Assembly: GCA_964016885.1 (NCBI GenBank)
Contig: OZ024743.1
Location: forward strand, 260,338,001-260,402,000
Source: Eledone cirrhosa
Lineage: Eukaryota
DNA: 64,000 nt
Direction: 5' to 3'
Below are positions 1,672-58,970 of the stretch, in pieces. The number at the start of each line of letters is the position of its first letter. Position 1 is the stretch's first letter. The translations under genes and the position numbers were made by a program. The notes beneath the pieces are model-generated. The model saw nothing but the letters and a program-made list of their open reading frames with translations. It did no database searches and was not told where the DNA came from.

Positions 1672-1965
<294 letters not shown>

Positions 1966-2092
1966 GAAGTTCTATTTAAATTGTTGGGATACAACAAGCA
2001 AATATTTTTATAACTGATAAAGCACTCAACAAATTATTGGAGTAAAAATACGATATATTAACAAATGGAAACTATATTTATAAAACCATATT

Positions 2093-2157
2093 TATTTCAA
2101 TATACATATTTCAAGGACACCAAGTTAAATTATGGTGTGCTTTCATCAGATAAAATA
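2093..2157 (-). ncRNA. Minimal type I hammerhead ribozyme (inverted copy)
   Basis: Reverse strand reads tattttat-CTGATGA-aagcacacca..tggtgtcctt-GAAA-tatgta-TA-ttgaaata. Confidence 0.75.
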
Positions 2158-2231
2158 TATATATTATGTACTTTAATTATATTATGTACTTTATATTTAT
2201 CTCTCTCTATATATATATAGATAAATATAAA

Positions 2232-3471
2232 GTACATAATATAATTAAAGTACATAATATTTATCTCTCTCTATATATATATATGTATGATGCATGTCTA
2301 CCGGTATGTGTATATATATGTGTGTGTATCTATGTAGGGCTTGTGTGTATATGTATATATACATACAATTCGAATGCACTCTGTTATAAAGGATTTCTTA
2401 CGGTTTATGCTAAACAAACTTATATAATAACAGTCACAACTACATAACAGGTGGATTTATTAGATATAACATTTATAAAATTATAACTTACTATTGAATA
2501 ATATAAGGTTTGTATAATCCTAAATTTCCTTTATTATCTTAACATTTATAACATTTAATATAAGTAAATAACTTAATTTCCTTCACGCTGTTTTGCTATT
2601 ACATAGAAATAATTTTTCTCCGATTTTTTCTCCGATTTTTTCTCCGATTTCTCAGAAAAATCTATGTTTAGAAAAATTCCTATATCTTAAACATAAAAAA
2701 TCTGTTATTGTATGTATATATATGTATGTGTATGTATATATATATATATGTGTGCGTATGTATATATATGAATATATTCTTTTAATAATATATAGTTTTA
2801 ATAATATATAGATTTTAATAATATATAGATCTCAATTTTAATTTATAAATCTCAATAATTTAATTGATAATTTAATTGATAAACTAAACAGTTAATCATA
2901 TTTAAACACTGGATAAAATTCTCCAGTTATTATTACTTATTTATTTTCTATTCACGCTTATTTACTATTCCTAACTCATCCAATAAATATTTATTTTTTC
3001 ACTTCATCTTAAAAGTTACGCTAATACAACCTACCACTTAGGGCTTTCTCTTTCTCTTTCTTCTTCTCTTTCTCTTTCTCTTTCTCTTGTTTTCTTATTT
3101 TCTTCTTATTTTCTTTAGGGTTTGCTCTTTCTTTCTCTTTTTTTTCTCTTTTTCTCTTTTTTTCTCTTTTTCTTTTCTTTCCCTTTTTTCTATACTTCAA
3201 CGGCTTATTTTAAATCTACTGTGATTTAAACATATCCGACACTAATTTGCATAATAGAATAAATAAATTTTAATAACCCCCACTATCCGGGAGCTTCCAA
3301 CAGAAATGGTCGCATTCTTTAAGGGTATGTCAATATTTATTTATAAAACTGATCTATATTATATTTTATCTGATGAAAGCACACCATAATTTAACTTGGT
3401 GTCCTTGAAATATGTATAATCAAATAAATATGGTTTTATAAATATAGTTTCCATTTGTTAATATATCGTAT
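2232..3471 (+). repeat. 5' pseudo-LTR of the Naiad-like element
   Basis: Near-identical to 6320-7711 apart from indels and the SINE in the 3' copy. Confidence 0.92.
3362..3426 (+). ncRNA. Minimal type I hammerhead ribozyme in 5' pLTR
   Basis: tattttat-CTGATGA-stem II (acacca/tggtgt)-GAAA-tatgta-TA-atcaaata; the short self-complementary stem III is typical of PLE HHRs. Confidence 0.85.
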
Positions 3472-3609
3472 TTTTACTCCAATAATTTGTTGAGTGCTTT
3501 ATATCAGTTCTAAAAATATTTGCTTGTTGTATCCCAACAATTTAAATAGAACTTCTACATATATTCTGCTCCTTTATTGTCGAGCGCTTTATATTATAAC
3601 TGAAAAATA

Positions 3610-5847
3610 ATGGAATTCTTTAAGATCTCTTCTTCTCTAAAGGACATACCTATACCTAGGAATAAAGACTTTATTAAACAATTAATAGAAAAATGAGACT
3701 CTTTTATAAGAAGAATCAGGTGGCGTGCTTTCCACTTCGATAAATCTGATGTAAAAGAGAATGTTTCCAATCTTGATAAAATCTTCAAATCTACCCCCCC
3801 CCCCCCCCAACAAACTACTAATGGATTTTGAAAATAAAATCATATCTATCATCCAAAGCATAAAATACAAAAACAACTTCATAGGCCAGGATTACCTAAG
3901 AAATATGAAAAATAATATTGAAAACTTGGAGAAAACGGAAAAAATTCTAGTCAAGTCAGACAAAACCAATAATCTTTACGGAATACAAAAGGACATCTAT
4001 AACGATCTTATATTAAAGGAATTAAGGAAGAAATACAAAATAACAACTAATGAAGACCTTGAAAAATTGAATACAGATGCCTCTTATATAATGCATGAAT
4101 TAGGCATTGAAAATAGGACACAACCCTTCATGCCAAGGAAACCTAAAATTAATATGAAGGACCACAAAAGGAACTTTGAAACTGAATTACCAGTCAGATT
4201 AATTGCACCATCTAAATCGGACCTTGGCATACTTAGCAAGAATATTTTAGACAGAATAATACCACAAATTAAGGAATTATCTTATTTAAAATTCTGGAAA
4301 GGAACTAATGAAGTTATCGAATGGTTTAAGGAAATTAAATATAACTATAATAATAAGTTTATTCAATTGGATATTGCTAATTATTACTCATCCATCACTC
4401 CTAATCTACTTAATAAAGCACTAACATATGCATTTAAACATACAGACTTAACTAGTAATGAAATGCACATTATCTTAACGGCACGGAAAACATTAATTGA
4501 ATTTAACAACCAACTCTGGACTAGAGCAGATAGAAATAATAATTTCGATATCACTATGGGATCATCCGATTCCGCTCAGGTAACGGATTTTGTGGGCCTT
4601 TTTATAAATAATTCTCTACATAGAAAAATACCTGAGATAACCGGAGGTTTATATCGTGACGAAATGCTATTACTTATCGAAAATAATAACTGTGAATTAA
4701 ATAGGAAAAGAAAAGAAATTATACAATTTTTTAATTACCTTAATCTAAAAGTAGAAATAGAGAAAAACCATAAAATAGTTAATTTTCTAGATGTAACCTT
4801 AAACCTTAACACATGTCTTCATTATCCATTTCACAAACTAAACGAGAACTTAAACTACGTTAATTTTAACTCTAATCACCCCAGATCCGTTAAAAATACT
4901 ATAGTGAATTCTGTACAGCAACGCATTTCTAGAATTTCAGCTAATAGGAATATATTTGATGATAAAGCACATTATTACAACGAAGCGTTAGGTCGAGCTG
5001 GATATAGAAATAAAATTAAATACATTGATAATAATAATATAACAACTAACCATAATATTAACAATTTTAACAACTATAATAGAAAACCTTACAATAATTC
5101 GGAAAACAAAAAAAGAAACAGAACTAGGAATATATTATGGTCCGCTCCTCCTTTCTCATTAAATATTAAAACTCCTATTGCTAAACTATTCTTTAAAGCT
5201 CTTGACAAATGCTTCCCTAGAACACATAGATATTACTCAATATTTAATAGACATACTATAAAATTAACTTATTCACCCACCAAAAATTTAGCGCAGAATA
5301 TTAATAGAATTAATAATAGAAATTTAAACCTAACCAAAATACCACTAATAACCCCAGCAATATCCAATTTAGTAATACAGCTCAATTTAATAATACAGCT
5401 CCTAGTGACTTAAATTTTGATAAATGTAACTGTAGAAATAAATCTAACTCTCCGTTAAATAACAATTGTTTAGCTAAAAATATAGTATATAATTGTAATG
5501 TAAAAACTAATTTAAATTCATTTAATTATGTAGCATCTACTTCCTCAGATTTTAAATCTCGTTTTAATAACCATAAATGCTCTTTTACGCATTTAAACAA
5601 AAAATCTTTCACTTCTCTATCTAGCTTATTATGGGATCTTAAATTAAAGAACGTTAAATATTCGTTACTTTGGAATATTATTTCAAAAGCTACTCCATTT
5701 AACTCCTCTTCCGAAAATTGCGATCTTTGTATAGAAGAAATATTCTTTATATTAAAAAGCAAAAATTCCCTGAACGTAAGAAGCAATCTTTTCAGTTGCT
5801 GAAAACATAGATTGAATTCAACGTTTAAATATGAATTTAAAATGTAA
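3610..5847 (+). pseudogene. PLE polyprotein (reverse transcriptase + C-terminal GIY-YIG endonuclease) with two frameshifts and two in-frame TGA codons
   Basis: ATG at 3610 gives MEFFKISSSLKDIPIP...IEK*DSFIRRIRWRAF. Frameshift in the C15 run 3794-3808 into ORF 3761..5413 (LDIANYYSSI, TMGSSDSAQV, LYRDE, VNFLDVTL, SNHP). Second shift near 5330 into CNCRNK..PL...C..KNIVY...YVAST...FKSRFNNH...CDLCIEE...NVRSNLFSC*KHR, stop at 5845-5847. Confidence 0.9.
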
Positions 5848-7065
5848 TATATAACTCATTCTATTAAATATATTGAACCTATCGATAAATCATTAGATTC
5901 CTTCATTTGACTGCTTAAAACTCTCATTATATAAAAACAATTTTTCCTAGAAAATTTTTCTAGATAAACATACTGAAAGCTCTTAAAAGGGGAAAATATT
6001 TTCTTTGAAAGTTTCTCCTATTTTTGAAAGTTTCTCTTTTTGAAAGTTTCTCTTTTTGAAAGTTTCTCTTTCTTTTTCTTTGAAAATTTCTTTGAAAAAT
6101 TAAGTTAAACATACTGAGAGTTAAATATTATATATAAAAAATTTAAATTCATTTTTATACTGAATGTTTAGACATATTCCTATTTTAAAATTATATCTTA
6201 AAATATTTTAAATATTTTTTAAAATTATATTGCTTAAAATTGTATGAATATATTTCCAAATCGTAATTCCTTTTAAAACTATAATTCATTTTTATTTTTT
6301 ATTGTATTTTATATATTATGTACATAATATAATTAAATATATATTTATCTCTCTCTCTCTATATATATATATATATGTATGATGCATGTCTACCGGTATG
6401 TGTATATATATGTGTGTGTATCTATGTAGGGGTTGTGTGTATATGTATATATACATACAATTCGAATGCACTCTGTTATAAAGGATTTCTTACGGTTTAT
6501 GCTAAACAAACTTATATAATAACAGTCACAACTACATAACAGGTGGATTTATTAGATATAAAATTTATAAAATTATAACTTACTATTGAATAATATAAGG
6601 TTTGTATAATCCTAAATTTCCTTTATTATCTTAACATTTATAACATTTAATATAAGTAAATAACTTAATTTCCTTCACGCTGTTTTGCTATTACATAGAA
6701 ATGATTTTTCCCCGATTTTTTCTCCGATTTCTCCGAAAAAACTATAAATTTAGAAAAATTCCTATATCTTAAACATAAAAAATCTTTTATTGTATGTATA
6801 TATATGTATGTGTATGTATATATATATATGTATATGTATATATATATATGTGTGCGTATGTATATATATGAATATATTCTTTTAATAATATATAGATTTT
6901 TTAATAATATATAGTTTTAATAATATATAGATTTTAATAATATATAGGTCTTAATTTTAATGTATAAATCTCAATAATTTAATTGATAATTTAATTGATA
7001 AACTAAACATTTAATCATAGTTAAACACTGGTTAAAATTCTCCAGTTATTATTACTTATTTATTT

Positions 7066-7154
7066 AACTTTGCCTTTCATCCTTACGGGGTCGATAAAAT
7101 AAAGTACCAGTGATACACTGGGTGTTTGCTGGCCTTGTGCCTAACGTAGAAACA
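7066..7154 (+). mobile_element. 5'-truncated SINE nested in the 3' pLTR, with 18-bp TSD
   Basis: gcctttcatccttacggggtcgataaaataaagtaccag core; attattacttatttattt on both sides (7048-7065, 7155-7172); absent from the 5' pLTR. Confidence 0.92.
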
Positions 7155-7601
7155 ATTATTACTTATTTATTTTCTATTCACGCTTATTTACTCTTCCTAA
7201 CTCATCCAATAAATATTTATTTTTTCACTTCATCTTAAAAGTTACGCTAATACAACCTATCACTTAGGGCTTTCTCTTTCTCTTTCTCTTTCTTCTTCTC
7301 TTTCTACTTCTTTTTCTTCTTCTCTTTCTCTTTCCCTTTCTCTTTCTCTTGTTTTCTTATTTTCTTCTCAGGGTTTGCTCTTTTTTCTCTTTTTCTCTTT
7401 TTTTTCTCTTTTTCTTTTCTTTTCCTTTTTTCTATACTTTAACGGCTTATTTTAAATCTACTGTGATTTAAACATATCCGACACTAAGTTGCATAATAGA
7501 CTAAATAAATTTTAATAACCCCACTATCCGGGAGCTTCCAACAGAAATGGTCGCATTCTTTAAGGGTATGTCAATATTTATTTATGAAACTATCTATATT
7601 A

Positions 7602-7666
7602 TATTTTATCTGATGAAAGCACACCATAATTTAACTTGGTGTCCTTGAAATATGTATAATGAAATA
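7602..7666 (+). ncRNA. Minimal type I hammerhead ribozyme in 3' pLTR
   Basis: Same motif as 3362-3426. Confidence 0.85.
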
Positions 7667-7961
7667 AATATGGTTTTATAAATATAGTTTCCATTTGTTA
7701 ATATATCGTATATATAACATTCTTTCATAGTTGGTAATAATGTGGCTAACATCTTCGGTCTTCGTTTTGAACAGCATACATTTATTGTCAACTGATGACT
7801 TCCCTCTGTCTGGAGTGTGCGTGTGCGCGTGTGTGTGCGCGCGCGCGTGTGTATGTGTGTGTGTGTGCGTGTGTGTGTGCGTGTGTGTGTGTGCGTGTGT
7901 CAGTGTATCAGCATGAGTCTTATTAGAAGGCTACAACAATGCAAAAGAGACAATGTTAAAA

Positions 7962-8150
7962 ATAATTGTTTCTACGTTTGGCACAAGGTCAGCAATTATC
8001 CCAGTGCATTACTGGTACTTTATATTGTCGACCCCGTAAGGATGAAAGGCAAAGTTAACCTCGGCGGGATTTGAACTCAGAATGGCAAGGGCCGTAACTC
8101 TATACGTCAAAGCAAAGCGTCCGACCCTCTACCGATACTGCCAATCCAAT
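7962..8150 (-). mobile_element. tRNA-derived SINE (main family)
   Basis: Reverse complement of the SINE at 39957-40143; B box gagttcaaatccc. Confidence 0.9.
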
Positions 8151-8374
8151 AATGTTAAAAAATAATGGTTTCTTATATAGGGACAAGGCCAACAATTTTG
8201 TATATATATATACACACAACTGCAAGGTAACGTACCAACATATTTGGTGTCGATTTAATCGACTTTCCCCTCCCTCAAAATTGTTGGCCTTGTCCCTATA
8301 TAAGAAACCATTATTTTTAACATTATTGGATTGGCAGTATCGGTAGAGGGTCGGACGCCATGCTTTGACGTATA

Positions 8375-9811: not shown

Positions 9812-9860
<49 letters not shown>

Positions 9861-9907
9861 TTGTTGGCCTTGTCCCTATATAAGAAACCATTATTTTTAA
9901 CATTATT

Positions 9908-10095
9908 AGATTGGCAGTATCGGTAGAGGGTCGGACGCCATGCTTTGACGTATAGAGTTACGGCCTTTCCCATTCTGAGTTCAAATCCCGCCGAGGTTAA
10001 CTTTGCTTTTCATCCTTACGGGGCCGATAATATAAAGTACCAGTAATGCACTGGGATAATTGCTGGCCTCTTGCCAAACGTAGAAACAATTATTT
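9908..10095 (+). mobile_element. tRNA-derived SINE (mirror of 7962-8150)
   Basis: ttggcagtatcggtagagggtcggacgcc head, B box, central conserved domain. Confidence 0.9.
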
Positions 10096-10514
10096 TTAAC
10101 ATTGTCTCTTTTGCATTGTTGTAGCCTTCTAATAAGACTCATGCTGATACACTGACACACGCACACACACACACACACACACATACGCGCGCGCGCACAC
10201 TCCAGACAGAGGAAAGTCTTCAGTTGACAATAAATGTATGCTGTGCAAAACGAAGACCGAAGATTTTAGCCACATTATTACCTACTATGAAAGAATGTCT
10301 TCTCGTTACCACCTACCCATGAGACATGATGTGGTAACCAGAATAATCTGAATTACACTAAGGAAGACGAAAATAAAACCAAGTAGAGAAGAATATGTAG
10401 AGTCTAATTGTTCAAAGGAATAATGGTGGAACGTAAAAAGAAAGACTGCCAACGAATTCAAACATAACCGGTCTGATATTGTTGTTTGGGACCATATATT
10501 ATTTATCTGGCTGT

Positions 10515-10686
10515 ATTGGTAGAGGGTCGGACGCCATGCTTTCTAGCATAGTTACGTCCCTTTACGGTCAGAGTTCAAATCCCGCCGAGATTAACTTTGC
10601 CTTTCATCCTTACGGGGTCGATAAAATAAAGTACCAGTAATATACTGGGTAATTGCTGGCCTTGTGCCAAAAGTAGAAACAATTAT
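10515..10686 (+). mobile_element. tRNA-derived SINE
   Basis: Matches the main SINE family. Confidence 0.9.
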
Positions 10687-11865
10687 TTATTTATTTAATT
10701 TATACCTCTGCATTGAGCTAGTAACACATGACAGAGTAAGGGAAGTATCTAGTACTTCTTACAGTTGATAAACAAAAACAAGATAGACAGAAATTAGTGA
10801 ATATAATTTTTTTTTTTAAATGATAAATTTTAAATAAAACCAGTTGATAAGATGCTTTGTCGTGGAAGTCAGGTGCCCGCTCGATGTCTAGGTAATAAGA
10901 AAAATGTAAAAGAAAGAGTCTATCCTCGGACCATTGAGGAGGAGTTTGCAGATCCAAGATACACGCTCAGCTTCATACCTATTATTATTGGAGCTACAAG
11001 ATATATATATACCAACTCGCCTCGATCAAATTATAACGCAACTTGGATTTGTGAAGAAAGAACATAGCTTCTTAATTCATTAGCTATAAATGGCCGAGAT
11101 ATCTGGAAACTTCAGAAACTGTAAAATATCTTTACGCTTCATCGGATGAACGAGGGACAAAGGACGACAAATTTTTCCTTTACTTTATAACCTTGCCATC
11201 ATATAGAATTTTGCATGCTGAACATTTACGCGATGGCCATTTAAATATAACCAGCCAAGTTCACACTATATTCAAATGAGTATTTCCAGTCGATGTTTTC
11301 TATTTGCTATATGCAGATGTGCATTTCCAGCAAATATTCATCACGCAAAATTTTATGTTGACTCTAGTTTATTTCTATTACTGACGAAAGATTAACAGAT
11401 CTGGAAATAGCATTATCTGATATTCTCAAAACACTAGTAACTCTGTGATATATTCATAGAGGTAATATAGAAAAATAAATTTTTTTCGTTACAAAAGTTT
11501 TTTTTCGTTGATAGCGAGGTTACCCATATTTATATTGTATAAAAACGCATGATATATGTTTATATATGTTTCATATACACCTCTGTTATACTTAAACATT
11601 GTCTTAGTGCTACTGCCAACTAAATATGTATGTATGTATTTCTGTGTATGCGTTAGTGTGTGTATGTATCCGTCCGTGTCTCTGATTACGTTTACACCTG
11701 GATGTATTTATATGTCTCGCAACTTAGTGTTTCAAAAAAAAAAAAAAGGAATCGGTAAAATAAGTGCAGGACTTAAAAATATAAGAAACTGTGGTCGAAA
11801 GGATCGACTAAATCAAAGCGGTGCCCCAGCATGACCGCTTTTTGATGACTGGAACTAGCAATAGA

Positions 11866-11908: not shown

Positions 11909-12211
<303 letters not shown>

Positions 12212-12276
12212 ATATATATATATTACAAATAAAATAACAGGAGGCTGGACTGGTGTAAATCCTTGAAAAGTTTATT

Positions 12277-12334
12277 ATACTATGATCATTTCAATAACCG
12301 GGTTCCGTATGAATCCGGTGATATCATCAGGTAT
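12277..12334 (-). ncRNA. Minimal hammerhead ribozyme
   Basis: Reverse strand reads atac-CTGATGA-(accggattc/gaacccggt)-GAAA-TGATCA-TA-gtat, with palindromic stem III. Confidence 0.85.
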
Positions 12335-12487
12335 TCGAAGTATAACAAAGGAATATATAAAATCCATGGAGCCGAAAATCAGAAACAGAGAGGACGACTG
12401 ACCAACTAGCTGCTTTTCACCTCGGTCAGTCGCCCTCAAGACCATACGGAATGACCAATTCTATCCGGTGGTGAACCAACAAACCTA

Positions 12488-12534
<47 letters not shown>

Positions 12535-12669
12535 CAAAGAGATATTTAATTTGCTGGTAATTCAACAAATTTATTTATTATAGCACATTCGAAGCACTCT
12601 ACAGATGTTCTTGGAGTATAATATCAATGATAGTAATAAATGGAAACTATATTTATAAAACCATATTTG

Positions 12670-12731
12670 TTATATCAAATATATTTCAAGGGTACCAAAA
12701 AAGGTTTGGTACGCTCTCATCAGATAAAATA
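12670..12731 (-). ncRNA. Hammerhead motif in a Naiad-like pLTR fragment (about 12532-12760)
   Basis: tattttat-CTGATGA-gagcgtaccaaa..tttggtaccctt-GAAA-tatat; the downstream atatggttttataaatatagtttccat is shared with the 3362 HHR flank. Confidence 0.72.
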
Positions 12732-13140: not shown

Positions 13141-13346
<206 letters not shown>

Positions 13347-13414
13347 GTTAATCCGGATTGAATCGGAGGTAACCACAGTAAGTAAGGTACTCAATACATT
13401 GCAGAGTATAACAT

Positions 13415-13546
13415 TTTTAATATAGATGAGATTCTACAGGACTAGAACTGTTTCATTCTTTAGAAATCATCAGGAGTCTGCAGATTCCTGATGATTTCTA
13501 AAGAATGAAATAGTTCTAGTCCTATATAATCTCATCTATATTAAAA
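13415..13546. ncRNA. Palindrome carrying two divergently oriented hammerheads (13430-13478 minus, 13483-13531 plus)
   Basis: ga(c/t)tc-CTGATGA-tttctaaagaat-GAAA-(c/t)ag..ct(g/a)-TA-(g/t)aatc on each arm, centred on ctgcag at 13478-13483. Confidence 0.82.
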
Positions 13547-13664
13547 CTTATATATATAGATATATATATATGTATATTGTCATACTTTGGAAGGGTTATG
13601 CTGGCAATATATATATATAATATATATATATACTCCTTAGCCACTCAGCCATAATACCTGTATG

Positions 13665-13931: not shown

Positions 13932-13998
13932 ATACTTGGGGAGGGTCATATTTGTGTAATATTGCCAGAATTAATAACAGAATTTAGAACGTAGCACG

Positions 13999-15078
13999 AT
14001 GGAAAGCATCCAGCAGATAGCTAATTCCATACACCAGAGTATAACTGTAACTATCGACTTCCCTTCCAAACACCCTAACAATAGACTACCTGCATTAGAC
14101 ACAGAACTCTGGATTAACACTATAGACGAGAGAGCCCAAATTCTCCACTCACACTATGCTAAACGCATGGCCTCCAAATACCTAATACTCAAAAACTCAG
14201 CAATGTCCAGTAGTGCTAAGTTTAATATTCTGATCGCAGATTTGGTACGAGTGATGAAGAATGTGTCCCGCATGTGCGACCCAACAGAAATGGAAAGACA
14301 CATCCAACACTTCATCAACCGCATGCAGTTCTCTCGCTACAACCAAAGAGACAGAGTCAGAGTATACGAAAGAGCCATGGAAAAGTATAAGACCCTCATA
14401 GAACTGGACATGAAAGGAATTTGCCCATTATACAGGAGCAAATCATGGAATAGCTTAGATAGGGCTAGACATAAGATAGGGAAAGCCACCTCATGGTACG
14501 ACAACTAGAGATACCAGAGTGTCATGTTTGTGGACGCCACCCCTGGAGGGAAATTAGCTAACCAGTGTAGAAAGGCCCTGAGAAAGACCCACTTAAAAAT
14601 AAAGGTGGTAGAAAAGCCAGGAACCACCATAAAATCCATGATCAGCAAAACCTACCCTTTTAAGAAAACCCACTGTACCAATAGGAAATGTATCATATGT
14701 AAGGTGAACCCCCGGATAAACTGTAAAACTAGAAACGTAGTCTATAGCATAAGATGTACAGAGGGTACTTGCAGAAACATGACAAAAACATACATAGGTG
14801 AGACAGCTCGTAGCATAGGTGAAAGGATAGACCAACACTGGGGGGAACTAAAAGGACGAAAAAACGGGTTAGTACTATACGAACATGCTAGACAACAACA
14901 TGACGGTAACATAGACAACATAGAAATTAGAATAATATCTAAACATAGAAATGACCCAGCAGATAGGCAAATCAGAGAGGCCAGTGAAATAGAAATTAGA
15001 AGACCAAAGCTAAACAGAAAGAATGAATGGAATAACAACAACACCCAAACAAACAACACTGACCTAAGAGAAGTATAA
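13999..15078 (+). pseudogene. PLE RT C-terminus, Cys-rich linker and GIY-YIG endonuclease, with one in-frame TAG at 14506-14508
   Basis: ORFs 13999..14508 and 14524..15078 share a frame; RLPALD, C-x4-C-x2-C, NVVYSIRC...YIGETARSIGERIDQH...REASEI...LN. Confidence 0.88.
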
Positions 15079-15314
15079 ATAAGTAAATAAAATAAGATAA
15101 ATAAATAAATAAATACATACACAAGCACAATAACAACAAGCACATAAACACACACTAGTCACCCATCACACAGCAAACATAACACTATACACACGCGCAA
15201 ACGCATGCGCAAAGAAGACGAAATAAAATAAACAAACAAGCAAATAAATAAATAAATATATAGACAGACTGAATAAAAATGGCGTAGACATACAACACAA
15301 CAGAAGGAAAATAT

Positions 15315-15372
15315 AACACCACTGACGATGTTGCAGATGTGCAACGAAAGATTTATGATAAACTATATATAT
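15315..15372 (+). ncRNA. Probable hammerhead in the PLE 3' region
   Basis: CTGACGA-t-gttgca-gatg-tgcaac-GAAA followed by an imperfect stem III; stem I is poor. Confidence 0.55.
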
Positions 15373-15617
15373 GTGTTTGTGTCTATATTGTATCTGTATT
15401 ATTTTTGACCGTCGGTCAGTCAATGGCAACATTGAGGACCGAGTAAGTTAGATTACCGATATAAAAGACAGCGAGAAGCAAAAACCAACCAAACAGTGAG
15501 TGTGTTCTGTTATTAATTCTGGTAATATTACACAAATATGACCATCCCCAAGTATAACAATATTTGTTTCGACACACGATTTCATATAAAAAATCTCGCA
15601 AAACTAATTCATCGCCG

Positions 15618-15655
<38 letters not shown>

Positions 15656-19643: not shown

Positions 19644-21502
<1,859 letters not shown>

Positions 21503-24099: not shown

Positions 24100-24798
24100 T
24101 TATATATATATACATAAACATATATACACATACATATGTACATATGGGTTATATCGAACATTAATAATAATGTTCGATTCGTTTGTAAACAAACTGAAGA
24201 TGTGTCGTGCCGGTGACCGATCATCACCTGTTTGTTCAACACTGACTTTGAGGAACAATCAACATGTTTTCTGGGTCATTACCCTTCATACTTACACACA
24301 CACACATATATATATATATTATATATATATATACATTTATGTTATGTTTAGTGGTTTACTACTGGACAGAAGTGGTCATTCCGTTTAGTTAGCCATGATA
24401 TAATAATAGTAGGAAAAGCACTCACTGTTAGGCAACTCACTCAACGTTGATGTTTAATCCTGTGGTTGGTGCCGGAATGGAGTTAAATATTAGTTTATAA
24501 AAGAGTTTGTTGGCTCTATAAGTTTCCTCATGTATTCTTCATTAGATGGTATAGGTATATCCTTGAGAGATGTCGGGAATGTGAAGAATTCCATTTTTTA
24601 TTCAATATACAATCTATTGTATAGAAAAGCGCTCAACCTGCTGGGAGCTAGTTATATTTAAAGGTTAAACAAGGTTCAATGAATAAATCAAAGAATGAGT
24701 TTTACAATAGATTGGAAGCACTCAAAGATAATGGTTTTCCGGAGTTATTAATATTAATTCAAAATATTAACAAAAATAGAATTTCTTGTGATCAAGTA

Positions 24799-24865
24799 TA
24801 TTTTATTATACATATTTCAGAGGTACTGAGCTAACTTCAACAGTACGTCCTCATCAGATAAAATA
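24799..24865 (-). ncRNA. Intact minimal hammerhead
   Basis: tattttat-CTGATGA-ggacgtactg..cagtacctct-GAAA-tatgta-TA-ataaaata, with a perfect 8-bp stem I. Confidence 0.88.
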
Positions 24866-25644
24866 AGATGATGCATGACGTACCCTGACATAGTAGATGG
24901 TTAAGATCCAGTCATGGTAGTGAGTAAGATATGACAAAACTCAATATTTATATATCTCAAGATTGAGACATGAAAAAACTTACATATAATACATATAATA
25001 CAAAGGGTGCGTGCGAGAAAGCTTAAAAATACATAACAGCAATTTACATAACTGTTAGAGATTCAAATAATTTAAATTATTGAAGAAAGAGGAAACAAAA
25101 AAAAGAAAGACAGAGAGAAAACAGATGAGGGGAAATTATAGCTAGTAGAGGTATAGAGAGCAAAAGAGAATTGATCAAGGAAAGAGAGACAAGGAGGAAT
25201 AATTATAGGGAGGGATGAATTATATATATTTATACATAACTATACATTTGGGCATAGCTTTGCGAAAGAGTAAACTCTAATCTTTGAATTATTGAATTAT
25301 CTAGAAGTATTCATCAATCTAAATCCTAAATATAACTGGGTGTAATTATATGAAGGTTAATTTCCAGTCCTTAGTTAATTAGTTATATATACTATCCAAA
25401 CGTATCCGGTTGACCGTTAACTTTCAAATCATTTAAGTTAGTTCAGAGTAATGAATTAATCAAAGTGTATAATATTTCAGGCTATAAAAGTTTATAAATA
25501 TCTGTATTAATATTAAAGTATACTATCATATTTAATTTATAAAATCATATTTTATGAAATCATATTTAAACTATTTGCAAACATGAGAAAGAAGACATAA
25601 TATTTTCATCCTCACGAAGTTAATTCTTATTAAATTTTATTATA

Positions 25645-25822
25645 TTGGCAGTGTCGGTAGAGTGTCGGACGCCATGCTTTCCAACATAGTTACGTCCCTT
25701 TACGATCTGAGTTCAAATCCCGCCGAGGTTGACTTTGCCTTTCATCCTTACGGGGTCGATAAAATAAAGTACAGGTAATGCACTGGGTAATTGCTGGCCT
25801 TGTGCCTAAAGTAGAAACAATT
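25645..25822 (+). mobile_element. tRNA-derived SINE
   Basis: Matches the main SINE family. Confidence 0.9.
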
Positions 25823-27153
25823 ATATTATATTTAATTATTTATATTATATTGAAGATAATTCGCATCATATAATTTATAAAATAATTAGAGTTATAATTT
25901 TAAAAATTAAGATTAATAATTATAATGCCTTAAAGCATCAAAAGGCCTTATAATTAAACTTTTTAAAAAATTATTATTAAATTAGATATATGCATTTGTC
26001 TAAATATAAACAAAGATTATATTGTCTAAAGATTAAGATGATACTTATCAGTTATATATAACATAATATAATACAATAAATAAGTTACTGATAATATTGT
26101 TAAAAATTAAGGTTTTATCATTTATTATAATAGGGTCATGTAATACATATATACTATAAATATACAAGTCAAACTTCATGAATCATAAGGATAAGAACCA
26201 GATTCAAAGTAAAAAAGTGAATTCTTTGCGATCTTAAAAATGCCCACTATCCAAGCTATATAGTTTAAAAATACAAGAAAATGTTTTTAAAAATGTATAT
26301 AGTAGTATAATGTGTCTGCAAACATGAGAAAGAGAAAACCTAAGGATTTCATTGACTCGAAGGTAACCCGAATTTAATTAAATTAAATTAAATAATAATC
26401 GTTATATAACTTAAAATATCATGTCTTCTTTCTCATATTTGCAAATAGTTTAAATATGATTTCATAAAATATGATTTTATAAATTAAATATGATAGTATA
26501 CTTTAATATTGATACAGATATTTATAAACTTTTATAGCCTGAAATATTATACACTTTGATTAATTCATTACTCTGAACTAACTTAAATGATTTGAAAGTT
26601 AACGGTCAACCGGATACGTTTGGATAGTATATATAACTAATTAACTAAGGACTGGAAATTAACCTTCATATAATTACACCCAGTTATATTTAGGATTTAG
26701 ATTGATGAATACTTCTAGATAATTCAATAATTCAAAGATTCGAGTTTACTCTATCGCATAGCTATGCCCAAATGTATAGGTATGTATAGATATATATAAT
26801 TCATCCCTCCCTATAATTATTCCTCTTTGTCTCTCTTTCCTTGATCAATTCTCTTTTGCTCTCTATACCTCTGCTAGCTATATTTTCCCCTAATCTGTTT
26901 TCTCTCTGTCTTTCTTTTTTTTCTTTCCTCTTTCTTCAATAATTTAAATTATTTGAATCTCTAACAGTTATGTAAATTACTGTTATGTATTTTTAAGCTT
27001 TCTCGCACGCACCCTCTGTATTATATGTATTATATGTAAGTTTTTTCATGTCTCAATCTTGAGATATATAAATATTGAGTTTTGTCATATCTTACTCACT
27101 ACCATGACTGGATCTTAACCATCTACTATGTCAGGGTATGTCATGCATCATCT

Positions 27154-27220
27154 TATTTTATCTGATGAGGACGTACTGTTGAAGTTAGCTAAGTACCTCT
27201 TAAATATGTATAATAAAATA
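27154..27220 (+). ncRNA. Hammerhead copy with GAAA mutated to TAAA
   Basis: Mirror of 24799-24865; the catalytic G12 is lost. Confidence 0.75.
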
Positions 27221-27357
27221 TACTTGATCACAAGAAGTTCTATCTTTGTTAATATTTTGAATTAATATTAATAACTCCGGAAAACCATACCTTTGAGTGC
27301 TTCGAATCTATTGTAAAACTCATTCTTTAATTTATTCATTGAACCTTGTTTAACCTT

Positions 27358-27408
<51 letters not shown>

Positions 27409-29408: not shown

Positions 29409-29537
29409 TTTGGTATATTGTGTGTTAGATTTTGCCTACCACAATGTTCGATTTGTCAAGCTATTTAAACGTATGTTATTACTCTAAGGACCTACCTTAT
29501 CGAGTGCTTTGCTAACTCATTATTTCATAGAGTGGAT

Positions 29538-29727
29538 TGGCGGTGGATTGGCAGTATCGGTAGAGGGTCGGACGCCATGCTTTCCAGCATAGTTACGTCC
29601 CTTTACGATCTGAGTTCAAATCCCGCCGAGGTTGACTTTGCTTTTCATCCTTACGGGGTCGATAAAATAAAGTACCAGTAATGAACTGGGTAATTTGCTG
29701 GCCTTGTGCCTAAAGTAGAAACAATTA
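29538..29727 (+). mobile_element. tRNA-derived SINE
   Basis: Full-length match to the main family. Confidence 0.92.
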
Positions 29728-29772
29728 TTTCATAGAGTAGGCCGATTCTGCTTGCAAACCGGCAGAGATTGG

Positions 29773-32469: not shown

Positions 32470-35400
32470 CTACAGGCTAATATAGAGAGAAGGCCCATTC
32501 ACTCGGGCCATTCTCGCCACTTTCACCCACCTTTCATAAAACTTGCTGGGGTACAGCACCTCTCTCTCCATCCTGATTCTTCTTCCAAAGTGGTATTTGA
32601 TAAAAAGAATCAGTTGTTGGCCGGAGAGAAAGGTGTCTGACCTCAGCCCTTTCAACCTTGTCCACCATACAACCTCTTTCGCCATAGCTATCACACAAAG
32701 GAAAACCGCCTCTCCTTCGTTTTTGAAGGAGGGTGGCGGTTTGATCATGACAATGGACTCGGTGGTCAACTGGATTGGTCCCACCCGCGACAATAGTCGT
32801 TCTACATAGCCCCACAGGTCAGTGACGCCCGGGCAGTGTATGAATGCGTGCGCGACGGTTTCTTCGTCTCGCACGCACCTCGGACAGATCTTTTTTGCAG
32901 GGTCCCTGCCCGGGCGCCCATGTCTGTAGAGCTTGTCTCGAACTGGTAGAGCTCCTCGGTAGCACTGCCAGGCCAGGGACTTTTGGAAGTTGTCCATCGG
33001 TCCCGGGCGGAAGGTCCTACCGAACAGACTGGCCAGTTCATCTTCCTCTACGCCTAGAGTTTCACCGAGCGCGTCGTCGCACTTGCTGCGGACCAACCCT
33101 CTATAGAATGACGAAGTGGAGTCTCCACTGATCGCCGGGTCCGCCTGCCAGAGGGCTGTGAGCGCCTGAGCACATTCGATGTGCCAGTCGCCCATTTTCC
33201 ACGGTCTCTGCTTGACCCAGGACTGCAGCTCGGTCAGCGAGACGAGTCGTGGGAAGGCTCGCCTCACGAACGGGGCCCACACCGGTTGTCCGGTGAGGAA
33301 TACGTAGAGATGCCGCAGCCTGAGCGCGTGTTTGCGCATCGTCAACCACGGCATCCCCAGCCCTCCGTTAGAAGGGTGTTAGCAGCAGATGGATCTTCTC
33401 ACCAAAGGAGCCCGCCTCTTCCAAAGGAATCGGAAGAGCGCGCGCTCCATTTTGGCGAGCGTTTTGGCTGTACAAGGCACGACGGTCAAGCGGTAGTAGA
33501 TGGCGGACGCTATAAAAGTGTTCGCCACCTCCGCTCGACCTTTCAAGGATAGTTTGCACTCGGCCCACTTCTGGGTGAGTGCAAACACCTTGGCCGTCAC
33601 TTCGTTCCAGTTCTTCTCCACCTGGAGGTCCGGACCAAACCAGACCCCGAGCAGCTTTACCGGTCCTTCCGTCCAGCGTCCGACGACGCCATCGGAAGGC
33701 ATCGGTCTGCCTCTCCACGATCCGAGTTGCAAACCGATGGACTTGTCCCGGTTCAGCTTCGCTCCTGTGAGACTTTCGTATTCCTTTAGTAAGGTGCCGA
33801 CTTCCTCGATTTGCGAGGCGCTCGACACCATTACTGTCACGTCGTCGGCGTAGGCCGACGCCGCTTTCCGCAGTCCCGGTTCCAGAGGGATGCCCTGCAA
33901 TAGCTCCAGCTTCCGCAGTAGTGGCTCGAGAGTCAGTACGTACAGAAGGGAGGAGAGAGGGCATCCCTGTCGAATGGATCGCGTAATATGGAACGGCTCC
34001 GAGAGGTAACCGTTCACCTTGACCCTTGAGCAGATGTTGCTGTTGTGCATTGCAGCAATCCAGCCCCTGAACACGGGTCCGAAGCCTGCCGCCTCGAGCA
34101 CCGCATCCAGGTAACAATGGTCAACCCTATCGAAAGCCTTAGACTGATCCAAGTTGATCAGGGCCCCACCGAAGCCGGGTTTACACCCTACCCTCTCTAT
34201 GATGTATCGCATGAGGTGGAGGTTGTCGTGTATGGACCTGGTCGGGATCGCGCATGTCTGCCCTTCTCCCACCAGGTTCTCGACGACAAGCGCCAGCCTC
34301 TTTGCCAACACCTTGGCCAAAATCTGTAACTCTGTGTTTAGCAGAGTTATGGGCCGGAAGTTTCCTATGTCATCCCCCTTATTCTCGTCCTTCCTGACTA
34401 GTGTGACTACGCCCCCGGTTACAGAACTGGGAATTCTCCCGTTCTGTTGCCAGTTGCAGTAGACCGCTTCCAGGCGACCGGAGAATAAGTCCGGCATTGC
34501 CTCCTAAAATTCGTAGAGTAGACCGTCGAGACCTGGAGATTTGCGTTTGCCGCATTGGCTCAGCGCGTCCCCTATCTCAGCGGCTGAAATCGGCTTTTCG
34601 CAGAACTTTGCCTCTCTGTCCGAGAGTCGCGGTAGGCCGTCGAGGTATGGACCAAAATCCATAGCCCCTCCCGGCGCGCCGCCCCGCCCGAACAGTTGAG
34701 CAAAGTGCCGCTGAAAGGCCGCACACATCTTCTTCGGCTCACGTATCACGCGTCCGTTTTGGTCCTTCAAATACCGAATCGTGGACTTGTTGCCACTTTT
34801 TGCCTCCGTCACTCGGGCCCAGCTAACAGCTTTGGCTCTCTCGTTTCCCAGAGCACGTATTTTACTTCTGACAACGCAGCCCTCGTGCTTTGCGTCGAAG
34901 AACTGGTCCAAGGCTGTTCTCGTTGCTAGCTCTCTGGCTACGTTGCCACTTCTAATTGCCTCTTCTACTTTATCTACCAGTTCCTTTTCGGTTCTATTTC
35001 TATCTAACGCTAATTCTTTACTAAAAACTAACGAGTCTAATCTAACTGCCCTCTTGAGAGAGTACCACCATCTGTTGTTGACAATGGCCCCTGTCAAGTG
35101 CTGTTTAACTAAAGTGCTAATCCGTCTACTGAAGGCTTTGCTTGTCGGTAACGACAAGTTCAGCTTCCAGTAGCCGGGTCCTTGTCTATGGGTTCTATCA
35201 AGGTTGGCCATGCAGGTCACTAGTTTGTAATCTGAATAGGCAACCATGAACATTTGTGGACAGCTTAACATGTCCCTATCCTTATTTCTAACTAGAACCC
35301 TATCTAGGTACGATCTAGATGTTCCGCTACGATTACTCCACGTCCACAGTGGCACAGTCGGAAAATCTAGTCGATATCTATCGGCCAAGTCAAATCGGTC

Positions 35401-35907
35401 GATTAACTGTTTGAGGCTGTTACACCCCCCTTTATCGGGACATGCTCCCACATAGTCCCAACGTGCATCTAGGATTCCACTCCAGTCCCCCACTAAAAGC
35501 AAGGAGCGGGACGTTCCCAGAAAAGTCTCTAGACGTTTGAAGAAGTCTGACCACATTGTCCCGGATGGGGCATATGCGGCCACCAGCCTGAAGGCTGCAC
35601 CTTCACTACCGTCAACGTCTAGGACCACCAGTCGACCCTCCGGGTCCAGATGTACCGTCTGTGTTACGAGGCCCAGGTGTTTCCGCAGCAAAACGGCAAC
35701 TCCGCCCCCACCCCCCGGTTGATAGAGAGATGCGTAGATCTCAAAGTCATCGAAGATGGGGGCCAGCTGTCGCTCGCTGTGGATCCTGGACTCGCAAATG
35801 GCTACCACATCCATACTGTGCGACCTGAGGTCGTTTAAGAGTTTGCCCTGTTTCCAGGGCATCCCCAGGCCGCGTACGTTCACACATCCAACTCTTATAT
35901 TGGCCAT
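32470..35907 (-). pseudogene. LINE ORF2: APE endonuclease + RT + Cys-rich domain, one frame with two premature stops
   Basis: NVRG, CESR, GDW, SYLDRV, SD(Y); SPGLDG, FRPITLLN, DQSKAFDRV, IRQGCPLS, YADD; CPRC...ETVAHAFIHC. Stops at 34504-34506 and 33379-33381 are in frame. Confidence 0.95.
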
Positions 35908-35940
35908 GTTGGAGCTGAAAAGTTAAAAGAGGAAAAGAGA

Positions 35941-37835
35941 TCACTCACCCTTCGTCTCCTGGGGACCAGGCTGCACGATTTCCATGGCGGTGTTGGAGGG
36001 GTTGTCTGGGTGGGTGGTGGTTTCCGGTGGGGTGGGTACGGAGATGTTTGGTGGGGTGGGATCTGGTGGGATGGGGGTGTCTGGGGTGGGGAGACATTTG
36101 AGAAGGACGCGGTTAAGTGGTCTCACGCAGGAATTCCCCACATCATTTTCAAATGTTTCTTTTAGGGACCTATAAGTTTGTATAGGGACCCTAATCAGTT
36201 TTAGGTTCAGTTTTTTGTTATTTTTAATAGAGTGGGCGAAAGTTTTCCCTTCGGTGAAAACCGAAGGGTTGTTCGTGATGGTCTCCATTAATGTTTTGTT
36301 TACAGTGTTTATGTAAGTGTAAGTGTAATTTTCTTGTGTTGTGTTTGTTTTTGTCTGTAGTTCTTGTGTGTGCTTTCGTTGTAGGTATTTTGTTTTCAGG
36401 AGGTGGGGGTTTTGTTTGTGATGTTTTTGTTGTTTGTGTTGGTGGTTGTATGTTTGTGGTAGTGTTTGCTGCTTTTTTGCTTTTGTGATGTCTTTTCTTT
36501 CTTTTCGAGCGATGGGGTTCTCCCTCGTCTTCATCTGTTGTATCGTCTGTGTGATTGGGGAGGGGTATGTCTTGGAGAGCTGTTGTGTCTGTATGTGATT
36601 TTGCAGTGGTTTTAGCTGGAGTGGGGTTGGGTGGGACTGTGTTTGTTGTGGTTATTTTTGTGTGTTGGTGTTGTTGTTGTTGTGGTGGTGTTGGTGGTTG
36701 TGTTGTTTTGATGGATGTCAGCAGAAGAGCCTTTTTTTACTCATTAATTTAGGACAGGAAGCCCTCAGGTGACCCCTGCTAAAGCAATGGTAACATGAAG
36801 GCCGCCTACCCTTAACCGAAAAGTTTATGTAGGTGAGTCCGTCCAGGATTACACGTTGTGAGATCATAGCTATTCGCTCTGGGCTCATTTGCACCAGAAC
36901 TTCAACGCTAGTCCCATTGAATACATCTCTGGGGGACTTTCCTACTGACAGTATTCTGTCTTCATCAAAATTGATGAAGCCGCACAGTATCCACCATATG
37001 TTCACCTTTGATGTGACACTCGTGATTTTAATCTTTTGTGTCCTTTTTCCCATATATGTAGGGAAAAAGCTATACAGGTTGGATACAATTGGCGACACAG
37101 AGTAATTTTGGGCCGCCAATTGATCCTTCATGAGTACCAAAATACTCCCAAAGAGTTTGCTTCTTTGAATGAATGAAATATCATTCATTGAATTTTTGAA
37201 AACCAGTTCAATTTCTTTCTGTGACAATTGGAGTGGTTTTCGGGTAGAATTGGAAACTGTCCTAAAAACTATCGTTTTGAGAGCAGTTTCCTTGCGAATT
37301 TCTACCGGAGAATTGATGCTGAAAGCACCATTTTTTTCGAAAGTGACATATCTCCTAGCGTCCTTTAAAAGTTGTTCGGCATTTGTTATGTCGAGATATG
37401 TCAGTTCCTCCTTTTTCTGAACTGTCTGTGCAAAGGAGATTTTGGTTTCTTTGTGGAATTATCCGTGTTGGTGGTGTTGTCATTATTGTTGTTATTGTTG
37501 TTGTTATTCTTGTTATCACTGATGTTGATATTATTCGTATTTTCCTTGGTGTTGGTGTTGTTGTTGTATTTGATGCTGGTGTTATTGGTGTTGTCTTTAT
37601 TTTTTTCTTTGTTGTTGTCATTGTTGTTTTTATCATCATTATTGGTGTTGTTGTTGTTATTTTTGTTGTCATTGAACTGTTTGGTGTCATTTGTGTTGTT
37701 TGGATATGAATTTGTTTTTACAATTTCATTTCGTCTTTCCATCTCCATAGTATCTAGGGAAGAAGACGATGTTGACTGCGAGCTATGTAGTCTTACCGAC
37801 TCTCCACCACCATTATCGTTGAACGCAGCGTTCAT
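35941..37835 (-). pseudogene. LINE ORF1 (Asn-rich N-terminus, CCHC zinc knuckle, Pro/Thr-rich C-terminus), frameshifted
   Basis: Segments 37401..37835, 36718..37227 (CYHCFSRGHLRASC) and 35941..36534 lie directly upstream of ORF2. Confidence 0.82.
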
Positions 37836-39635: not shown

Positions 39636-39956
39636 AAGTTTTTTGGTGTAGATGAATGTCAAAATAAATATCTCATTACGTACTGAAATCGAATTTCGAT
39701 TTTCAAATCGTAATTTAAAGCCTATATTCAGTTTATTGTCCACTAGCCTTTATGTTAATTGAGGCCGCCGGCTGAGATATTTAAATGATTTCTAGTTGCG
39801 CTGCTATAACTCTTGGCAAGTGACATGAAATATCACCAGTAATTTGACCAAATTCTAATCTCTTATTACATAGTTTTATAAATATAGTTTATGTATATTT
39901 TTTACGATAAATGTACCAGTCTTTTGGTGTTTTGTCAGTATTATTATGATACCACA

Positions 39957-40348
39957 GGGCGGTGGATTGGCAGTATCGGTAGAGGGTCGGACGCCATGCT
40001 TTGACGCATAGAGTTACGGCCCTTGCCATTCTGAGTTCAAATCCCGCCGAGGTTAACTTTGCCTTTCATCCTTACGGGGTCGATAAAATAAAGTACCAGT
40101 AATACACTGGGTAATTGCTGGCCTTGTGCCTAACGTAGAAACAATTATTATGATACCACACGAGGGCGGTGGATTGGCAGTATCGGTAGAGGGTCGGACG
40201 CCATGCTTTCCAGCATAGTTACATCCCTTTACGATCTGAGTTCAAATCCCGCCGAGGTTGACTTTGCCTTTCATCCTAACAGGGTAGATAAAATAAAGTA
40301 CCAGTAATGCACTGGGTAATTGCTGGCCTTGTGCCTAAAGTAGAAACA
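39957..40348 (+). mobile_element. Two tandem full-length SINEs (39957-40143, 40161-40348) with three copies of a 17-bp TSD
   Basis: attattatgataccaca at 39940-39956, 40144-40160 and 40349-40365. Confidence 0.95.
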
Positions 40349-40406
40349 ATTATTATGATACCACATGTTCTGGTTTTTACTGCACGCGCACACACACATA
40401 TATATA

Positions 40407-47842: not shown

Positions 47843-47982
47843 TGTATATATATATAGAAGGTAAGTAATATTGTAGAACAATAAAACTATGCATATATCA
47901 GATAAGTAGCACTCAACAGTTGGTAGAACTGGAGTATATATAATAAAGATGAAATAAAAGATGGTTATAAGAGTTCCATATA

Positions 47983-48048
47983 TTTTATTATACGTATTTC
48001 GAATACAAAATCAGCCTGGGACAGATATTGTGTTCTCTTCAGATAAAA
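47983..48048 (-). ncRNA. Minimal hammerhead (left arm)
   Basis: ttttat-CTGAAGA-gaacacaa..ttgtattc-GAAA-TACGTA-TA-ataaaa. Confidence 0.85.
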
Positions 48049-48111
48049 AATGTAGACTTAACACTTTCCTATAAACAAGTGCTATTATTCCTCATATCAT
48101 TGTACCTTATT

Positions 48112-48177
48112 TTTTATCTGAAGAGAATACAATATGTGTCCCATGATGATTTTGTATTCGAAATACGTATAATAAAA
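48112..48177 (+). ncRNA. Minimal hammerhead (right arm)
   Basis: ttttat-CTGAAGA-gaatacaa..ttgtattc-GAAA-TACGTA-TA-ataaaa; palindromic stem III. Confidence 0.88.
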
Positions 48178-48214
48178 TATATGGAACTCTTATAACCATC
48201 TTTTATTTCATCTT

Positions 48215-48303
<89 letters not shown>

Positions 48304-53187: not shown

Positions 53188-53191
<4 letters not shown>

Positions 53192-53274
53192 CGAAGGAAA
53201 TGTGGTAAGGAACCAGATGGACCATAACGCACCGTCGAAACGGCTTGAGCTCAGCCAACGGGGTCCTACTCGTT

Positions 53275-53279
<5 letters not shown>
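53188..53279. mobile_element. Tiny two-part PLE-end insertion related to 12017-12211
   Basis: ataacgaaggaaatgtggtaaggaaccagatgg joined to ccgtcgaaacggcttgagctcagcc...ctcgttccta within (TA)n. Confidence 0.78.
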
Positions 53280-53309
<30 letters not shown>

Positions 53310-53312
<3 letters not shown>

Positions 53313-57783: not shown

Positions 57784-57889
57784 ACGAGTTAGGTAGAAGT
57801 GGTTACACAACAGTTAGTTCACCATACCGAGAACAATTGTTCTCGGTATGGTGAACTAACTGTTGTGTAACCACTTCTACCTAACTCGT
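57784..57889. repeat. Perfect 106-bp palindrome followed by a PLE-like tail (57890-57945) shared with 12795-12845
   Basis: Centre gaacaa|ttgttc with no spacer; tail atggactgagtgctctaccactacggatattaccttccagtgttctac occurs twice in the window. Confidence 0.93.
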
Positions 57890-57950
57890 CCCATGGACTG
57901 AGTGCTCTACCACTACGGATATTACCTTCCAGTGTTCTACCACTGCATAT

Positions 57951-58639: not shown

Positions 58640-58744
58640 ATATATAGTGCATTTGATTCGGCTGGTGGTGGTCTTAATATGAGCACTCGATGCACAGGCA
58701 GAGTGTATATAATAAGAAAAACGAAACTTCATTTTTATTATTGG

Positions 58745-58970
58745 ACAGTGGACTGACAGTATCGATAGAGCGTCGGACGCCATGCTTCACGGCGGCATAG
58801 AGTTACGTCCCTTTATGTTCTGATTTCAAAGCCCGCCTTGGTTAGCTTTGCTTTCCATCCTTACGGGGTCGATAAAATAAAGTACCAGTAATACACTGGA
58901 GTCGAATTCATCGACTTTCCCCTCCCCAAAATTGCTGGCCTTGTGCCTATATCAGAAACCATTATTATTA
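58745..58970 (+). mobile_element. tRNA-derived SINE, longer variant
   Basis: Head, central domain and atcgactttcccctccccaaaattgctggccttgtgcc tail. Confidence 0.88.

Follow-up and report, generated by a model that had tools for sequence, protein, structure and literature searches.

Bulged stems before the start codon lie beside the ends of Hydra-clade PLE copies and are a candidate signal for the start of reverse transcription

In the genome of Eledone cirrhosa, copies of Hydra-clade Penelope-like elements (PLEs), telomerase-related retroelements of aquatic animals, end at either of two sites shortly before the ORF, and the locus analysed here raises the question of what sets these ends. The window, that is the whole stretch of 64,000 nucleotides that was analysed (C4:260,338,001-260,402,000 of the 3.0 Gb genome), contains a PLE insertion of typical structure at 1963-7711, with an inverted pLTR, an upstream pLTR with a hammerhead, an ATG at 3610, a broken ORF, and a 3' pLTR (Table 1). 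An initial annotation, made from the letters alone, had noticed a small hairpin present twice between the hammerhead and the ATG and had proposed it as an end mark of PLE insertions. All 11 hairpin sites that it named are present, and the copy ends at 7711, 13550, 21360, and 48222, described as stopping before hairpin 1, and those at 1962 and 27362, before hairpin 2, lie as described; the list was nevertheless incomplete, since a copy at 2022-2043 (minus strand) and a variant with a 1-nt bulge at 57884-57905 (plus strand) had been missed. The tail between the two end sites, E1 and E2, measures about 92 nt in the window element.

Table 1. Coordinates of the PLE-related features and repeats, counted from the first base of the window.
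Feature	Position	Strand	Detail
Minimal type I hammerhead, upstream pLTR	3362..3426, core 3370-3410	+	core motif scan; layout agrees with the available text of PMC4209133
Predicted hammerhead cleavage	after 3418	+	from hammerhead consensus
End site E1: interval holding the last element-derived base of tail-less copies	3468..3471	+	copy-end alignments
Hairpin 1	3476..3498	+	lower stem 3476-3479/3492-3495, upper stem 3480-3482/3487-3489
Hairpin 1 bulge and flank	2-nt bulge 3490-3491, unpaired GCU flank	+	
5' arm of long-range helix around E2 and hairpin 2	3504..3513	+	one mismatch in window copy
End site E2: interval holding the last element-derived base of tailed copies	3558..3564	+	copy-end alignments
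Hairpin 2	3568..3588	+	lower stem 3568-3571/3582-3585, one upper pair, 2-nt bulge 3580-3581
3' arm of long-range helix	3594..3603	+	
Decayed Hydra-clade PLE ORF: RT, then C-terminal GIY-YIG	3610..5849	+	stops and frameshifts break frame
3' pLTR with hammerhead 7610-7650, E1 end into TA	7434..7711	+	
Inverted pLTR, hammerhead 2109-2149, hairpin 1 2022-2043, E2 end into (TA)n	1963..2154	-	
Family B leader: hammerhead 24815-24857, hairpin 1 24718-24745, hairpin 2 24629-24648, ATG	24594..24857	-	
Family B inverted partner, hairpin 1 27274-27300, E2 end	27150..27365	+	
A-related pLTR: hammerhead, hairpin 1 12594-12617, E2-type end	12532..12723	-	
Short family G inverted pair	13345..13554		minus copy: hairpin 13387-13407 and tailed end; plus copy: stops at 13550 before hairpin
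Hairpin with G-C outer pair, further family with Hydra-type EN fragment	19677..19723	-	partner copy stops at 21360 before hairpin
Family C inverted pair	47857..48225		minus copy: hairpin 47909-47935 and E2 end; plus copy: E1 end 48222
Single hairpin, 5-bp upper stem	29481..29507	+	
Single hairpin, then short tail into (TA)n	58683..58704	-	
Variant hairpin, 1-nt bulge, then tail into (TA)n	57884..57905	+	
Interspersed repeat of ~200 nt	7064-7160, 7960-8374, 9857-10700, 25620-25840, 29540-29730, 39940-40365, 58750-58970		

Judging from its motifs and domain order, the element at 3610-5849 is a decayed Hydra-clade PLE. According to PMC8557442, this clade is recognised by an RWK near the N-terminus, the change of DKG to DKT, a C-terminal endonuclease (EN), elements that are "generally" short, a CxCX5C linker, CxxC and CxH motifs around the EN, a hammerhead, and (TA)n targets. 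The single ORF has the RT first and the GIY-YIG EN last, and it aligns end to end with relatives of about 700 amino acids. RWR and SDKT are present in the window translation, and RWK or RWR and DKT in the relatives; the sister copies show a CNCx5C linker, CDLC and CRH/CKH flanking the EN, and no CCHH, the window copy being decayed at two of these positions. The pLTR carries a canonical hammerhead and insertion is into (TA)n. Only shortness (<3 kb) departs from the clade pattern: the element measures about 4.1 kb from ATG to 3' end (3610-7711) because of its long 3' UTR. A homology search with the ORF returned 130 relatives, with 31-47% identity among the matches listed, and a Pfam search of four fragments gave no informative family. 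The element had been called Naiad-like at first, but Naiads have an N-terminal GIY-YIG EN and a DKA motif and are without canonical hammerheads according to the accessible part of PMC8557442, and this label is ruled out here by the C-terminal EN, the DKT, and the hammerheads. Family B had been presented as sharing the hairpin pair in spite of being otherwise dissimilar; the pair is there, and both families turn out to be of the Hydra clade, with similar N-termini. An in-frame TGA at the position of a conserved EN cysteine (window 5797-5805) was considered as selenocysteine and rejected, since three sister copies read Cys at this position, which indicates decay. Two LINE-like elements, both decayed and with frames for AP-endonuclease and RT, lie in the window as well (32470-37460, minus strand; 53249-55568, plus strand), and the interspersed repeat of about 200 nt listed in Table 1 is abundant and often inserted into PLE ends.

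The hairpins share a bulged stem, whose consensus begins with RCUC, followed by 1-7 bp of upper stem, a loop that varies, two bulged nucleotides of which the first is U, and GAGY with an unpaired RCU after it; in hairpin 2 the upper stem is often one C-G pair only. Pairing was analysed in 62 leaders grouped into 29 clusters at 70% identity, the hairpins being located by primary anchors only; two hairpins were found in 20 clusters, one in eight, and none in one (48 hairpins). With a 2-nt bulge the first upper pair forms in 44 of these 48, the corresponding values for bulges of 0, 1, 3, and 4 nt being 4%, 4%, 17%, and 31%, and upper positions 1-3 are paired in 92, 71, and 67% versus shuffle means of 76, 40, and 41%. 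The loops, which the first reading took to be unrelated, hold in fact a covarying upper stem and a bulge starting with U. Its observation that the outer pair covaries was borne out: this pair is Watson-Crick in 42 of 48 hairpins (G-C in 34, A-U in five, U-A in three) versus 28.2 in shuffles. None of 5000 shuffles reached the hairpin pairing values, and none of 500 the pair count of a 20-sequence alignment, in which 89.4% of cells were paired and 17 had changed on both sides; these shuffle controls take no account of relatedness, and two pair-type measures of the same alignment were no higher than in shuffles. These results show that the motif is a conserved, covarying secondary structure.

A strict descriptor of the motif gave nine matches in the window versus a mean of 0.57 (maximum 2) in 60 dinucleotide-preserving shuffles, and 17 matches in 200 kb of evenly spaced genome stretches. 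The folding stability of the whole leader was unexceptional (z = -1.47). Rfam searches of six leader-bearing loci gave only two sub-threshold miRNA matches, both in simple repeats, and for the window the best 150 of 228 matches were all below the gathering score and none lay over 3474-3592. A leader model built on sequence only recovered in the window just its two training copies, and nothing in 20 Neptune-like loci.

The same order of parts recurs in six families (A-F) of the host genome, where the leader ends with hairpin 1, hairpin 2, and, in those with a Hydra ORF, the ATG. In five of the six families the hairpins are preceded by a canonical hammerhead; family E has no canonical hammerhead core just upstream, though it has a Hydra ORF and both stems (L140, L142; window 12084-12211, 53191-53279). 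Genome-wide, the two-hairpin pattern gave 1,705 matches versus 124 for the reversed control, and the hammerhead pattern of the A, B, and C type 32,886 versus none in the control. One metagenome scan supplied 77 further loci, 39 of them with at least 200 nt of leader and 30 of these with a hammerhead; by script, two stems were detected in 24 of the 30, one in four, and none in two, several of the misses being visible variants. Within the ORFs of the metagenome loci the motif was absent (no match in 98,539 bases of ORF interior).

The leader contains, in addition, a long-range helix, in which the stretches that follow hairpin 1 and hairpin 2 pair with each other. In 21 two-hairpin clusters pairing with the own partner had a mean of -11.9 kcal/mol versus -6.5 kcal/mol across families, the own partner was best in 10 of the 21, and none of 20,000 permutations was as low. 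This covarying helix closes E2 and hairpin 2 into one loop. A similar helix around hairpin 1 was not supported in 18 families (own partner -7.7, cross-family -7.2 kcal/mol).

Several short or repetitive relatives accompany these families. In family F (L135, L138, L141, L146; window 12222-12489), hairpin 1 has a long loop, the tail measures 145 nt, and there are internal repeats of about 240 nt; the family keeps both stems, yet no Hydra ORF match was found in any of its four loci, and it is likely a non-autonomous dependant. Family G (window 13345-13554; L251) is very short and abundant, with a tiny hammerhead, both end types, and 83-nt tandem units in L251; a pattern search for its hairpin 2 returned 10 matches but not one clean read-through copy. 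At C1:91476590-91487301, four double-hairpin matches of family E follow one another at intervals of about 3.54 kb and are probably a head-to-tail tandem array, and such evenly spaced double-hairpin matches suggest that true tandems exist in the host genome. L122 is a tandem array of units of about 56 nt with one family E-type hairpin each, and in L139 an element whose hammerhead differs and whose imperfect stem has the same GAGUGCU flank is joined to a family C tail.

Ends of copies were mapped by aligning 14 read-through references with 755,605 bases, comprising the window, 200 kb of evenly spaced stretches, and loci chosen by the hammerhead, a feature situated upstream of E1 and E2 alike. 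Of the resulting rows, 711 matched nothing but the simple-repeat flank of one reference and were discarded, leaving 290 alignments with a minimum length of 40 nt. Among the 173 ends joined to (TA)n, 172 lay within -12..+1 of a hairpin (78 at E1 and 94 at E2, in six families), whereas only 42 of the 242 TA patches of the references fall in the hairpin-end zones. Three of the 290 alignments read through, and 114 had no (TA)n after the end, 31 of them near a hairpin and 83 away from one; roughly half of these 83 break off where one reference has an inversion point, and the others were judged by eye to be insertions or diverged subfamilies. Once TA ambiguity is allowed for, -6 falls within the main junction interval of each of families A, B, and E, and the register is mostly compatible with -6 ± 1. 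It is not strict: two copies of family C stop no nearer to the hairpin than -7, and a small number of copies stop at -9 to -12. Ends follow each stem separately, at stem spacings of 57-99 nt and of about 145 nt in family F.

A second sample consisted of 39 family A copies picked only by the 3' end of the ORF, eight of them without a pLTR within 3.2 kb. The other 31 ended at E1 (19), at E2 (nine), or elsewhere (three, one of which stops inside hairpin 1 into (TA)n), and none of the 31 read through hairpin 2. The metagenome gave 24 end rows, of which eight (cross-family divergence) and three (contig ends) were set aside; of the 13 informative rows 12 had their end at -12..0, and one of these ends joined an (ATTT)n run. 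A TAT or ATA was present at -10..-3 in 30 of 42 hairpins versus a background of 31%, and family A mostly used a 3-nt TA run in preference to one of 6 nt that lies five bases upstream. With ends clustering at hairpins in three samples, the cis-element originally proposed, with two ends beside a UA-rich patch, holds as a correlation.

A second PLE fragment of the window served as a control outside the clade. This fragment, at 13978-15620 (plus strand), has Neptune-like motifs, the label coming from the motif pattern, and a hammerhead at about 15323-15349. No bulged stem was found in 16 hammerhead copies of its family, 24 of 25 copies of which end at four successive TA patches, while one (L246) reads on. 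Since the stem is missing from the Neptune-like copies, the motif is not PLE-wide on present evidence: the claim that it marks PLE ends stands for the Hydra clade and fails for the one non-Hydra PLE tested.

We consider it likely that stems and ends lie about six bases apart in the Hydra clade because the RT-endonuclease, as predicted, binds the stem on the sense RNA and target-primed reverse transcription starts there. The GIY-YIG domain would nick (TA)n, and the freed 3' end would be placed on the RNA 4-9 nt 5' of the protein-bound stem, with UA pairing of 2-4 bases, where it exists, as an aid. The cDNA would then run upstream through the hammerhead, the 3' UTR, and the ORF, leaving the directing stem uncopied, so that a start at hairpin 1 would give a tail-less copy and a start at hairpin 2 a copy with hairpin 1 and a tail of 60-145 nt. 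The directing stem is indeed never part of a copy that ends before it, which fits a start site, as do the internal starts of Poseidon PAc described below. Points against this reading are the strand comparisons, which are mixed or lean slightly antisense, the register that is not strict, and the ends that lie away from the hairpins. Hairpin 2 occurs only before the ATG, and hence an ORF-bearing copy with a tail would require a circular or multimeric RNA or a template jump. A circular route has been proposed in PMC4209133, in the part available; circular RNA is not claimed here as a necessity, as tandems seem to exist in the host genome.

That the stem acts instead in DNA appears unlikely. The cDNA would in this case overrun the site, a hairpin would fold in the single-stranded cDNA, and the GIY-YIG domain would cut about six bases away to resolve the intermediate, in line with the accessible text of Craig et al. 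(PMC8557442), where the tail is ascribed to EN-mediated resolution, and with the D. virilis EN, which needed tail sequence in DNA as recounted in the available part of PMC11167929. Strand tests give the sense strand no advantage: the hairpins fold slightly better antisense (24 versus 11 of 42, p=0.018), the long helix scores 10 versus 10, and counts of G-U versus C-A are mixed. However, the start sites used by the Poseidon RT PAc in vitro coincide with tail ends (PMC11167929, same part), and the stem belongs to a larger fold together with the sense-strand hammerhead and the long covarying helix.

The slightly better antisense folding could also speak for an antisense RNA template, on which the stem would be a stop signal like the template boundary of telomerase and synthesis would halt at E1 or E2; we find this quite improbable. 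A fixed 3' end with variable 5' truncation is the established mark of target-primed synthesis in non-LTR elements, and this combination fits synthesis from the 3' end here, while hammerhead and ORF are both sense. An antisense, self-primed PLE template was proposed from inverted junctions (PMC3846280, as far as available), but PAc works on sense RNA (PMC11167929, accessible part). It is very improbable that the stems have a role in translating or stabilising the hammerhead-cut leader while another nearby feature sets the ends; in all coding families examined, the ATG does follow hairpin 2 within a few tens of bases, but the ends track each stem despite the differing spacing, and family F keeps both stems without an ORF match. 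Local TA microhomology alone, with the hairpin as bystander, would suit the enrichment of TAT/ATA at end sites and the stemless TA-patch ends of the Neptune-like family, but it is largely refuted by the few TA patches that lie near hairpins compared with the TA-joined ends and by the run that family A mostly skips.

Taking target-primed synthesis beside an RNA stem as the preferred reading, we tentatively propose that the leader could be a miniature telomerase-like RNA core, in which an RT-bound stem would set the start six bases upstream, the long helix would close hairpin 2 with its start site, and duplication of the motif would allow one circular or multimeric RNA to give two product types. 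If true, this would account for the tail of PLEs and mean that a portable signal about 25 nt long programs the start of a telomerase-sister RT. PLE RTs form the sister group of telomerase RT, and an internal start fixed by structure is therefore relevant to the origin of telomerase-style template handling. The motif is a defined, covarying, clade-wide element at a fixed distance from both ends, so breaking, rescuing, and shifting the stem become direct tests, and it gives an exact boundary rule for repeats whose hammerhead has at least 32,886 matches in the host genome.

Among known systems, the Hydra clade of PMC8557442 shares the protein motifs, the C-terminal GIY-YIG, the pLTR hammerhead, the (TA)n targets, the tandem and inverted pLTRs, and an optional tail, but its tail is given as 30-40 bp versus about 60-145 nt here. 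No leader RNA structure beyond the hammerhead is described in the accessible main text of that paper, in which "hairpin" and "stem-loop" occur 0 times, and no description of the motif was found in the PLE literature searched, most subscription papers and Repbase/Dfam notes lying outside the search; PLEs appear in PMC5737381 only within a reference. In non-LTR elements, recognition stems at the 3' end (R2 3' UTR, LINE and SINE 3' stem-loops) recruit the element RT and are shared with non-coding dependants; those stems lie within the copied 3' end, whereas the Hydra-clade stem lies just outside the copied part, twice, before the ATG. With the template/pseudoknot core of telomerase RNA (PMC5224487, available part) the leader shares only a layout, namely a short template beside a structured element and a long-range enclosing stem, copied by the sister RT group; neither a pseudoknot nor repeat addition was seen here.

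The nearest parallel is Poseidon PAc from Anolis, the subject of the only in vitro work (Frangieh et al. 2024, PMC11167929). Its RT uses two internal start sites that are the tail ends, needs the RNA 3' of them, and acts on AT-rich targets, no conserved signal being named in the text available. Initiation by PAc takes place within a single AC-rich stem-loop, 111-118 nt into the ORF, where the sequence has no homology to the cut DNA, and the stem-loop text in Fig. S1, as accessible, contains no such motif; in the Hydra clade each start would lie 5' of its own copy of the bulged stem, in the untranslated leader, and mostly with a short UA match. The principle of two starts is therefore already known from Poseidon (PMC11167929, in the same available text), and what appears to be new is a clade-wide, duplicated, structure-defined end signal.
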